From Escherichia coli (GTDB lineage Bacteria > Pseudomonadota > Gammaproteobacteria > Enterobacterales > Enterobacteriaceae): a stretch of DNA of 64,000 bases. Below are positions 51,001 to 54,000 of the stretch, in pieces (positions within the stretch are counted from its first letter, which is position 1; the number at the start of each line of letters is the position of its first letter). The stretch is from NCBI RefSeq assembly GCF_030013205.1, contig NZ_CP122648.1; one strand, given 5' to 3'. Position numbers: made by a program.

Positions 51001-54000
51001 CTTTACGCCGGAGTGGTAGTTTGTTGAGGTTTAGGGAGTTTCAGGCTGTACGCAGTACAGACTGCCTGCGAAGCAGGAGTGTCTCCGGGGCTTCTTGCCC
51101 CCCTCGGTATCGATCTTTTTCTCCTTTACTCTTAGCTGACAGCGGCCCCAAAGGGCATGTCAGACGGCGGAAATATGGCGCAGGCCAGAACTGGCGCGGC
51201 TTGTGGCGGTAAGTTGTGCGGCGTCACTTTGCTTTTTCGCTGGCGCGACCAAAGTGACGCCTCGTCTGGTGCAGGGGGTAAACGTTACGTTTCTGGTGCA
51301 GGGTGACGGTCACGCGGCAGCAAAGCCTGACGGCAATGCAGGCCGCAGCCCGTCAATGTAAGGCGCTGGTTGTCAGCAGAAGATAAAACCCGGCAAAGCC
51401 AGAGTGTCAGCCCGTAAAGCCGGGTATCTGGTGCAGTGATGGTGTATATGTACGTCAGTCTCAGATGCAGGTATTTTTGCATCCCCGGCGTTTTCAGAGA
51501 TCAACGCCGGTAAAGGATGCCATGCTGGCGAAGCCAGGCGCTTCTTTCAGACGTGAAGCGACAAAGGGACTGCCCGGAGGCAGTTTGTTGCAGGCGGGAG
51601 ACTGCGCCATTATTTCTGGTGCAGGAAGGAAAAACTGTTTCCGGGTTTAAAAGATTGTTTGCTTACCTGGTGACGGAAAAACTGCCGCGCTTCGCTTGTC
51701 TTCTCCCGGCGCGCTGCCAGCAAAAGCAGGCAGCGCGCCGGGAGAGTCTGGTTTTACTGTAACAATGCGCCTGACGGTTCAGCCATCAGGATCGGCGTTT
51801 ATGCATGAGTCTTCCGGTACGGTTGCCCCGATCATCGATGTATCTGGACGGTCAGATAATTTCCGGTGATGTTTCCAGCGCATCCGCAATCAGTTTTTCG
51901 CCGCGCGGCCTGGAGCGGGTCAGCGCATTTGCCAGCGTGGAAGACGCCAGCCCGGCCCTGCGGGAAACCTCAGCCAGCGATGTTCCCTTTTTTCTCAGGC
52001 CCGCGATAATATCGGCGGGGTGCCAGTCGGGTTGCATCATGCTGGCCTCCCGTCGATAACCTGTATGCCGTCAGCAGTACATATCCAGCGTGGGGCGTTC
52101 AGATTGGCGGCAAAATACCAGACCAGTTCGCACAGCAGCCCGGTCAGCGTGGTTTCGGTTTCCGGCAGCAGCACGTGGCCGTTCAGTATCTGCGTCAGCG
52201 CCAGGCAGTAATCGCAGAGTGATCCTGCATCAGGCTCAAAACCGGGTGAAACATCGGGAAGATCATTCGTAATAAACCCGTCAATCAGATGTGGTGGGAT
52301 CGGCTCGTTCAGCGTGGGCCGCAACAGTGCAAGACAGGTATTAAGCCTGCCACAGAGCGCCGTTTTCAGCGCCGGATCGCAGCACTCGATGAGCGTTGTG
52401 GCAACGCGATCGCAGTACTCCGCCAGATCGGTGAAATCGGTAGCGGCACTAAAGGGAACAGCAAGTAAATTGCATTCAGAGGTGAGAGTAGTCGCCATAA
52501 GGCCGTCTACAGTGAGTGATAAATATTCCAGCCACTGGAGAGGCTAATCTCACGGGTGGTGGAACCGGACGGGGTTAGCCTTACCAGCCTCACTGACACT
52601 GGCGCGTCTTTCGACGCCCCCGCCCGATCCCGCCATTGAGATGAGACCGTGCGCGACACACAAATATTGTATCGTCAGTGAGGATCTTCAGGAGGCTAAT
52701 CCCGACGCCTGATTTTGCAGGCGCGGCGCAACAATACAATGTTCGGTAATTTTCAGCAAGAGGTTTAGCGGAAGCAGACGCACAGGAAAATACAATCACG
52801 CGATAAATATTAAATACAATTATATTTATATAAAATATATATTGAGCAATATGCAGACACTTTCCAGTAAATATCCTGTCAGTTAATTCGTCCCGTTGAT
52901 ATCAGTCAAAAAAATAAATGTAAAAAGAGCGTATTTCGTTTCATACAGTAACGTTATTTATCATTTTGTCCGGTGTCGCCAGCATCAGGCCAGATGAACC
53001 ATAAAAAAGGATATCAGCGATGAGCGGAAAACCGGCAGCACGTCAGGGCGATGCCACAATGAAAGGTGGCCCGATAGTCCAGGGGTCGGCAGGCGTGAGG
53101 ATTGGCGCGCCAACCGGCGTGGCCTGTTCAGTGTGCCCCGGCGGATTCACTTCCGGTAACCCGGTGAATCCGCTGCTCGGTGCAAAAGTACAGCCCGGCG
53201 AAACCGATTTCGCGCTGCCCGGCCCGTTACCGTTCGTGCTCTCCCGCACCTACAGCAGCTACCGGACGAAAACCCCTGCGCCCGTCGGTATCTTCGGTCC
53301 TGGCTGGAAAGCACCCTTTGATATCCGCTTACAGATACGCGATAACGAACTGATACTCAATGATAACGGTGGCAGAAGCATTCATTTTGAGCACCTGTTT
53401 CCCGGTGAGGATGGCTTCAGCCGCAGCGAATTATTCTGGCTGGTGCGCGGCGGCGTGGCGAAACTGAATGAAAGTCACCGTCTTGCCCCACTCTGGCAGG
53501 CTCTGCCGGAAGAACTCCGCATGAGTCCGCATATTTATCTGGCGACGAACAGTCCGCAGGGGCCGTGGTGGATACTCGGCTGGAGTGAGCGGGTACCGGG
53601 TGTGGATGAGGTGCTGCCTGCGCCATTGCCGCCGTACCGGGTGCTGACCGGCCTGGTGGACCGCTTCGGGCGTACCCTGACCTTCCGGCGTGAGGCAGTT
53701 GGCGAATTTACCGGGGAAATCACCGGCGTGACCGATGGCGCAGGCCGTCAGTTCCGCCTGGTGCTGACCACGCAGGCGCAGCGGGCGGAAGAGGCCCAGC
53801 AGCAGGCGGTTGCAGCCGGAGCAAAACGACCAGATATCCCGGTTTCATTGCCGGACTATACAGAATATGGCCGGGATAACGGCATCCGCCTGTCAGCGGT
53901 GTGGCTGACGCATGACCCGGAATACCCGGAGAATTTACCTGCCGCGCCACTGGTGCGCTACGACTGGACGCCACGCGGTGAACTGGCGGCGGTGTATGAC

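Follow-up and report, generated by a model that had tools for sequence, protein, structure and literature searches.

The window analysed here is a stretch of 64,000 nucleotides (nt) from the Escherichia coli contig NZ_CP122648.1 (assembly GCF_030013205.1), and the element in question is a pair of overlapping open reading frames (ORFs) on its minus strand together with the RNA-encoding leader in front of them. The region is E. coli chromosome, and it is 100% identical to strain K_EC180 and to many swine enterotoxigenic E. coli (ETEC)/O139 genomes. The first ORF encodes a protein of 153 amino acids (aa), while the second is a truncated ner-like gene. They are joined by an ATGA at 52040-52037, the ner start codon lying inside the stop of the 153-aa ORF with an overlap of 4 nt. 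The original prediction, made from sequence alone, had described this pair as a protein of no recognisable family followed by a Ner/Nlp-type regulator; the ORF listing and the sequence confirmed both ORFs and their overlap where they had been placed. The 62-aa product is an HTH_35/Ner-SfsB protein (PF13693, 83 bits against a cut-off of 25; NCBIfam SfsB; NF007670, E 6e-26) and falls in PHROG 769, 'transcriptional repressor'. The upstream ORF is a real gene without a named family; no match was found in Pfam, NCBIfam, PHROGs, PADLOC or a PDB sequence profile search. Nor do the two stand together by chance: of 82 related loci, 38 have this pair, and 31 of those 38 have the identical overlap as well. 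A PAAR-Rhs ORF starts at 53020 on the opposite strand, and the 521-bp gap between it and the 153-aa ORF contains a C4 antisense RNA gene and its targets.

The leader of the 153-aa gene, on the Rhs side, is 240 nt long and encodes the C4-type antisense RNA together with two copies of its target words (Table 1). The C4 match spans the whole RF01695 model (positions 1-87 of 87; clan CL00128). Its loop segment a' (GTCAGTGAGG) is complementary both to the upstream word a1 (CCTCACTGAC) and to the word a2 (CTCACTG), which ends 11 nt 5' of the 153-aa ATG, and the GGCTAA of its single-stranded segment b' is complementary to the TTAGCC of b1 and b2. Read along the minus strand the order is a promoter-like TTGCTG-N17-TATTGT, a 5' hairpin, b1, a1, the C4 fold, b2, a2 and the 153-aa ATG. 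In an alignment of 24 loci, the promoter positions coincide with a conserved block, cTTGC-N17-GTATCTT, that precedes the leader, and the Rfam isrK match begins at 52724, 7 nt 3' of the putative -10 element. The C4, a1b1 and isrK models all score above their gathering thresholds in seven relatives.

The pairing is borne out by comparison with other genomes. Relatives were fetched as 79 loci, one genome per species, with more loci from contig look-ups. A C4 core precedes a gene of the 153-aa family in 64 of 80 loci, and in 62 of those 64 each of the four target words matches the loops of its own C4 by perfect complementarity over at least 6 nt. The words differ among loci, at least 10 'a' words and at least five 'b' words being assorted into 36 combinations. 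The 3' end of a2 lies 9-11 nt from the ATG in 62 loci, where the word overlaps the GGAGG Shine-Dalgarno (SD) sequence. Covariation was tested on 63 aligned sequences with a structure, consisting of the internal stems and the C4-target helices, that the analyst had specified. Standard pairs occupy 98.7% of the cells of this structure, against 30-44% when the partners are slid. Compensatory changes are found in 12 of the 16 C4-target base pairs: seven of nine a'-a2 pairs change on both sides, as do five of seven b'-b2 pairs, where 100% of the cells are paired. The internal stems of C4 also show compensatory changes, and the observed covariation score was reached by none of 500 shuffles. The mean energy of the C4-target duplex is -31.6 kcal/mol for cognate and -22.7 kcal/mol for non-cognate combinations. 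The gene in the leader is thus a C4-type RNA gene, with complementarity at three sites that covaries across the family.

It is likely, judging from these sequence comparisons, that the ORF pair is the coding part of an antisense-RNA-gated operon in the backbone of tRNA-integrated islands of Enterobacterales. The conserved promoter would drive one transcript carrying, in order, b1/a1, a C4-type RNA of ~88 nt, b2/a2 reaching to the ribosome-binding site, the 153-aa gene and ner. If it behaves like P1 C4, P4 CI and Gifsy-1 IsrK, the C4 RNA would be excised from the leader by RNase P, and its two exposed segments may then pair with b2/a2, hiding the SD of the 153-aa gene and leaving the operon silent. 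Ner would be translated only along with the 153-aa gene, and since its start lies inside the stop of that gene, one RNA would gate both proteins. The upstream a1/b1 copy may act as an intramolecular or trans decoy able to lift the block. Both the ATGA overlap and the position of the pair in the island are conserved, and the translational coupling implied in the original prediction would fit this overlap and the precedent of the homologous isrK-orf45-anrP system, in which experiments showed that an AUGA junction makes translation of the second gene depend on that of the ORF before it (PMC4825925). With respect to the proteins, our best guess is that Ner is a Cro/Ner-type repressor acting on island DNA, and that the switch guards the 153-aa four-helix protein as its effector, in the position that icd, kil or an antirepressor occupies in phages.

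Table 1. Features of the module and its surroundings. Coordinates are those of the window unless a locus (L number, a related locus in its own coordinates) is given.
Feature	Position	Strand	Details and basis
Putative leader promoter	52731-52759	-	-35 TTGCTG 52759-52754, 17-nt spacer, -10 TATTGT 52736-52731; alignment to conserved block
5' leader, first C4-target copy (isrK/c4-a1b1 type)	52662-52737	-	Rfam c4-a1b1 and isrK, complementarity to C4 loops
Leader parts	52674-52724	-	5' hairpin 52724-52705; b1 TTAGCCT 52699-52693; a1 CCTCACTGAC 52683-52674
C4-type antisense RNA gene	52552-52640	-	Rfam RF01695, 62.2 bits vs gathering 45, E 2e-10
C4 pairing segments	52575-52597	-	loop a' GTCAGTGAGG 52597-52588; single-stranded b' AAGGCTAA 52582-52575
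Second target copy at ribosome-binding site	52503-52547	-	b2 TTAGCCT 52547-52541, a2 CTCACTG 52516-52510, then SD remnant
153-aa ORF	52037-52498	-	ORF listing; uncharacterised conserved family, predicted four-helix bundle with C-terminal beta-hairpin
Truncated ner-like gene, 62 codons	51852-52040	-	PF13693, 83 bits, model positions 1-58 of 75
Former 3' end of ner, 21 codons and original stop	51786-51851	-	frame runs on as PSRYIDDRGNRTGRLMHKRRS, then stop
Hairpin and box directly 3' of ner	51682-51744	-	hairpin CTCCCGGCGCGCTGCC...GGCAGCGCGCCGGGAG, then box AAGACAAGCGAAGCGCGGCAG; sequence, conserved in relatives
EFASI RNA motif	50991-51118	-	Rfam RF02957, 100.8 bits vs gathering 51.2
Second tyrosine-recombinase-like gene remnant (Phage_int_SAM_2/Integrase_1)	50318-50935	-	RefSeq, identical sequence: frameshifted
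Window island parts (integrase, cargo)	~47480-49000 (L001 10783-12281) and 53020-57750		
Short ORFs annotated 'ash family protein'	52507-52659; L092 12205-12363; L093 10674-10832	- (window)	PF10554
Toxin-antitoxin genes in the ner-EFASI slot of relatives	L088 8607-8867; L089 8588-8890; L093 9562-9861; L100 10011-10601		
Solitary units	L090 9700-10450; L091 (= L015) 9700-10450; L010, L011, L016		

Relatives of the 153-aa protein form 196 clusters across Enterobacterales (search of 5.8 billion proteins), spread over more than 20 genera that include Escherichia, Salmonella, Klebsiella, Citrobacter, Enterobacter, Dickeya, Pectobacterium, Brenneria and Hafnia. Most clusters keep a constant length of ~153 aa at 58-99% identity. 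The family is narrow, for only 235 clusters were returned when 1.84 billion representatives were searched exhaustively with a profile. AlphaFold2, given a 38-sequence alignment, predicts with confidence a four-helix bundle with a small C-terminal hairpin (predicted local distance difference test, pLDDT, 82.7; predicted template modelling score, pTM, 0.78). A tblastn search with the gene hit one of 50,697 phage records, an unannotated and odd record of 1.5 kb, and seven 'plasmid' records, several of which are megabase-sized and of chromosome length. The gene is thus essentially absent from phage records and true plasmids, and a phage or plasmid origin was rejected on these counts. Fusions were considered as a clue to function and likewise set aside: PF10554, a profile overlapping the C4 region, is all that the members of 291-494 aa carry, and they are probably miscalled ORFs. 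In the window and in two related loci (Table 1), the C4 RNA gene shares sequence with short ORFs that the annotation calls 'ash family protein' (PF10554), and N-terminally extended calls of the 153-aa protein carry the same label; at these loci the annotation is probably a translated conserved RNA gene. None of the papers searched links the 153-aa family to Ner, C4 or EFASI.

The loci fall into two classes. In class A (38 of the 82 distinct loci) ner directly follows the 153-aa gene, and the module forms part of an arm with the order C4, 153-aa gene, ner, a hairpin and box, often a toxin-antitoxin (TA) gene (HigA or MazEF), the EFASI RNA motif, a 294-aa Integrase_1 gene, a convergent P4-type integrase and a tRNA. 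Among the 67 loci with at least 5 kb of downstream sequence, EFASI was found in 22, Integrase_1 in 22, the P4-type integrase in 25 and a tRNA in 33, the nearest tRNA being Phe in 20, Asn in 12 and Lys in one. Cargo sits across the C4 promoter from the module, and its content varies by locus: type I restriction-modification (RM) and DarTG in Dickeya, DUF4747, AbiE and TacAT in Klebsiella, a 1346-aa DUF8371 protein in Enterobacter, and OLD/AAA_15 with large unknown proteins in Salmonella, while a NERD-helicase is found on the far side of Integrase_1 in Hafnia. Among the E. coli asn-tRNA islands with ner, five were examined, and in all of them the cargo is related to the type VI secretion system (T6SS), namely Rhs, DUF2169, PAAR, VgrG and TssF/G. 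The thrW island of E. coli JJ1886, with type I RM and AbiE, has C4 and a 153-aa-like gene and no ner, and is thus not of class A. Because the same arm recurs beside such varied cargo, the module is probably island backbone and not an Rhs-specific regulator.

Class B consists of a unit of ~700 bp only, with promoter, a1b1, C4, a2b2 and an ORF of 145 aa, and has neither ner nor an integrase. These units are inserted between core genes, for instance tar/cheW, with no neighbouring cargo island. Enterobacteriaceae bacterium 89 has four class B copies, 72-82% identical and with different a/b words. A search for terminal repeats around the solitary cassettes gave none that were convincing.

The EFASI motif holds the same relative position in 22 loci. 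In these (L005, L006, L014, L037, L052, L088 and L089 among those named) it is always co-oriented with the Integrase_1-like gene and lies ~60-450 nt, usually ~100 nt, upstream of it; in the window the distance to the Integrase_1-like pseudogene is 56 nt. EFASI looks more like a 5' leader of this gene than a free-standing small RNA. The pseudogene is labelled 'phage integrase N-terminal domain-containing protein, frameshifted' in RefSeq, and the same slot in relatives holds intact 294-aa homologues with PF12834/PF12835.

The window island lies at tRNA-Asn beside yeeO, with a frameshifted P4-type integrase. Its cargo is one PAAR-Rhs protein of 1330 aa followed by a tetratricopeptide repeat (TPR) protein, which is probably the immunity gene of the Rhs; the DUF2169/PAAR accessory genes and orphan Rhs tips of related E. 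coli islands are lacking. RefSeq names just two mobile-element products in the identical island, both frameshifted: the integrase and the 'phage integrase N-terminal domain' gene. The remaining genes are the ORF pair, one hypothetical, the Rhs and the TPR protein.

The window copy was compared with close E. coli alleles (STEC308, SA31-1, RM9872 and PK12), and the comparison reveals decay. Its ner carries W44R (AGG at 51911-51909) and W63stop (TGA at 51854-51852), the latter affecting the invariant tryptophan of IIWPSRY, so that the translation reads II-stop-PSRY. The old frame, followed to 51786, comprises 84 codons and aligns with the 255-nt genes of relatives. Intact 84-aa alleles, with TGG at both tryptophan codons, are present in SA31-1 and PK12, and such alleles of relatives have the full-length PF13693 domain with the C-terminal IWPSRY that the window ORF lacks. 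In STEC308 ner has a frameshift and W63L (TTG), and in RM9872 W63C (TGT); the Trp63 codon is thus altered in three ways in E. coli lineages (window; homologous codon in L087, L088 and L089), which points to repeated independent loss of Ner function in E. coli islands. The SD of the window copy reads GTAGA, with a G to T change at 52509, where relatives have GGAGA or GGAGG; despite this change the position of the target at the ribosome-binding site is kept. The alignment further shows that an isrK-type terminator hairpin, present in most relatives, has been deleted from the window leader, and no short IsrK-like RNA is therefore expected from the window. The 153-aa ORF differs from that of STEC308, its closest relative, by seven changes, all seven non-synonymous and none synonymous, which is suggestive of relaxed selection in the window lineage, though not significant (P ~0.15). 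The window module is best read, as far as its sequence tells, as the fossil of a once-functional switch, because the SD is mutated, ner has lost both tryptophans, the terminator is deleted and the P4-type integrase and the Integrase_1-like gene are both marked frameshifted in RefSeq. If it is such a fossil, it is unlikely to regulate the adjacent Rhs toxin today.

Directly 3' of ner, a hairpin and box are conserved in ~20 Ner-bearing loci; the CTCCCG/CGGGAG ends of the hairpin are constant and its stem core varies with compensation, and no Rfam family matched either hairpin or box. The slot between ner and EFASI holds TA genes in relatives, a lone HigA-type antitoxin in E. coli and MazEF in Salmonella (Table 1). 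In the window this slot contains no TA gene, only ~670 bp without annotated function.

Three other readings of the pair have to be weighed. The absence of a family match in the profile libraries, together with the purely non-synonymous differences from STEC308, could suggest that the 153-aa ORF is merely a chance open frame, the outcome that the original prediction had named as its own refutation. This is refuted by its 196 homologue clusters of constant length, by a ratio of non-synonymous to synonymous substitution rates (dN/dS) between lineages of 0.13-0.36 at dS values up to 1.2 (Nei-Gojobori), by an SD and ATG that are conserved among the aligned loci, and by the confident predicted fold; the seven differences fit a recent relaxation in the window lineage only. 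According to a further proposal, which follows the original prediction, the pair is a dedicated Rhs/T6SS regulator in which Ner controls Rhs expression by binding the AT-rich divergent region in the manner of EnrR, possibly with help from the 153-aa protein. The spacer at 52738-53019 is indeed very AT-rich, T6SS-related cargo lies directly opposite the module in all five of the Ner-bearing E. coli asn-tRNA islands, and EnrR is itself an island-encoded PF13693 protein that binds AT-rich DNA and controls type III secretion system (T3SS) and T6SS genes (PMC9023278). However, the linkage to Rhs turned out to be confined to the E. coli asn-tRNA islands, and elsewhere the module faces RM, DarTG, AbiE, TA, OLD/AAA_15 or helicase cargo, in Dickeya, Klebsiella, Enterobacter, Salmonella and Hafnia; even within E. 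coli, the 153-aa gene of JJ1886 adjoins RM and AbiE. In the window ner has decayed while the 1330-aa Rhs ORF is intact, the Ner of the module lacks the N-terminal extension of EnrR, and EnrR loci have another gene order and no 153-aa gene. Having no Pfam match to such a family and only this limited linkage, the pair does not belong to the T6SS/Rhs accessory genes (DUF2169, DUF1795/Eag, PAAR, immunity) either. A dedicated Rhs regulator is thus quite improbable. What stands of the regulatory claim is a role at the level of the island, which fits the data, and since all five of those E. coli islands adjoin T6SS-related cargo, a local regulatory effect on it may be possible there.

An addiction cassette resembling type I TA systems, in which a harmful 153-aa protein is countered by the C4 RNA as antidote and ner is an optional passenger, so that the unit stabilises the island or persists selfishly, deserves more attention, even if we hold it to be rather unlikely. 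It would account for the conservation of the ~700-bp unit alone between core genes and for the four copies in one genome, each with different a/b words. Moreover, the first genes behind C4/CI in P1 and P4, icd and kil, inhibit growth, the loss of the SD from the decaying window copy is what costly expression would lead one to expect, and TA genes cluster in the same arm. On the other hand, the 153-aa protein looks like a soluble helical bundle without similarity to known toxins and has no PADLOC or Pfam match, and the C4 RNA would be co-transcribed with its target, with no opposing promoter as in classical type I systems. That the ORF stays intact where other island genes decay also fits a neutral or useful regulator. 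The gated island operon remains the reading we prefer.

Several observations weigh against the gated operon too. A strict sigma-70 consensus scan did not flag the leader promoter, and in the window the c4-a1b1 match (43.8 bits, gathering 46.7) and the isrK match (45.5 bits, gathering 50) both fall just under the cut-off. As the SD that C4 would mask is mutated, the gate may have lost its importance in this strain. Neither sequence nor fold comparison gave an informative relative of the 153-aa protein. A linker-fused, paired-alignment AlphaFold2 model of this protein with Ner gave a pTM of 0.49 and no confident interface, leaving a direct partnership of the two proteins unsupported by modelling. 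About half of the family loci are without ner, which is therefore not essential to the role of the 153-aa gene.

C4-, CI- and IsrK-type RNAs are textbook phage immunity devices. All the RNA parts of the module are Rfam families, and Ner is a known family; these elements were known before. New, in the sense that no paper was found describing them, are a C4-type immunity RNA dedicated to an uncharacterised non-phage protein family, the arm of C4, 153-aa gene, ner, EFASI, Integrase_1 and int as the backbone of defence/T6SS islands, and the solitary C4 cassettes. A phage-type RNA device with heteroimmune diversification would thus guard an uncharacterised protein family, and it marks a conserved arm of many tRNA islands through which E. 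coli, Salmonella, Klebsiella, Dickeya and other genera receive anti-phage defence and T6SS toxins. Such islands are usually described by their cargo alone, and the shared regulatory backbone offers a handle on their silencing, induction and mobilisation as well as a practical marker for their boundaries. The general weight of the finding is moderate for the family and low for the decayed window copy. One may speculate further that the unit of promoter, C4 and 145/153-aa gene is an autonomous, hitherto undescribed element, either an RNA-antidote/protein-toxin cassette or a self-contained switch for excision or helper-dependent transfer of a large family of enterobacterial defence/T6SS islands, although we consider this unlikely. 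If it were so, the a/b 'immunity' words would diversify so that co-resident copies avoid cross-talk, and the 153-aa four-helix protein would be a new class of effector guarded by C4-type RNAs outside phages.

When the module is set beside known systems, its second gene, where intact, is a clear homologue of Mu Ner (1NEQ, E 2e-21), E. coli SfsB (Nlp) and Edwardsiella EnrR (7F9H, E 2e-17), all of PF13693. EnrR is encoded on an island, binds AT-rich DNA, regulates AT-rich genes of horizontal origin and counteracts H-NS at T3SS and T6SS genes, and an N-terminal extension of ~10 residues before DWH is needed for its minor-groove contacts and its competition with H-NS (PMC9023278). The Ner of the module has only 3-5 residues before DWH, the alignment starting at EnrR residue 17, and the window allele ends at residue 62 with both conserved tryptophans lost. 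The operon that EnrR heads is also a different one, lacking both a C4 leader and a 153-aa gene, and the EnrR locus was rejected as an instance of the same module on account of this gene order and missing gene. With type I TA systems the module would share a small RNA that blocks translation of an adjacent protein gene and, by analogy, compact solitary units that diversify in specificity; unlike them its RNA is encoded in sense, upstream in the same transcript, and its protein is not a small membrane peptide.

The RNA part has counterparts too. Relatives of P4 CI and seqA are known to be recognised by the Rfam models C4 and isrK (PMC10111431), and it is with these models that the leader of the module was found, which likens it to the P4 immunity region (seqA - cI RNA - seqC). 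Like P4-type islands, the island of the module has a P4-type tyrosine integrase (Arm-DNA-bind_3/Phage_int_M/Phage_integrase) beside a tRNA, and the leader region of the module is annotated 'ash family protein' through PF10554, the profile used for P4 epsilon. Still, no psu, delta, sid or alpha primase is annotated in the window island or was called in the related loci inspected, and the relatives contain no more than int, Integrase_1, Ner, the 153-aa gene and cargo, which is not the core of a P4-like satellite (psu, delta, sid, alpA, epsilon, alpha and integrase). The P4 RNA furthermore acts by premature transcription termination, while the downstream target of the module lies on the SD, as in P1. 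In Salmonella Gifsy-1 the short leader RNA IsrK acts in trans on a long transcript (PMC4825925). The module resembles isrK-orf45-anrP in having an upstream leader that matches Rfam isrK, above threshold in relatives, and an AUGA junction between its ORFs; it differs in that the gene guarded in Gifsy-1 is an antirepressor which switches on the prophage antiterminator, where the module has the 153-aa protein and Ner, and the window copy is without the isrK terminator hairpin. The module also shares its layout with the immI region (c4-icd-ant) of P1/P7. The proteins of that region, Icd and Ant, are unrelated to those of the module (no PHROGs or Pfam match for the 153-aa protein, HTH_35/Ner for the second ORF), and the module belongs to a chromosomal tRNA island and not to a phage. 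In both, however, a single transcript would carry a1/b1, C4 with its a'/b' segments, and a2/b2 at the ribosome-binding site of the first ORF. In both the first two ORFs overlap, the P1/P7 pair being translationally coupled and the module having its ATGA in 31 of 38 Ner-bearing loci, and in both the a/b words differ between heteroimmune elements.

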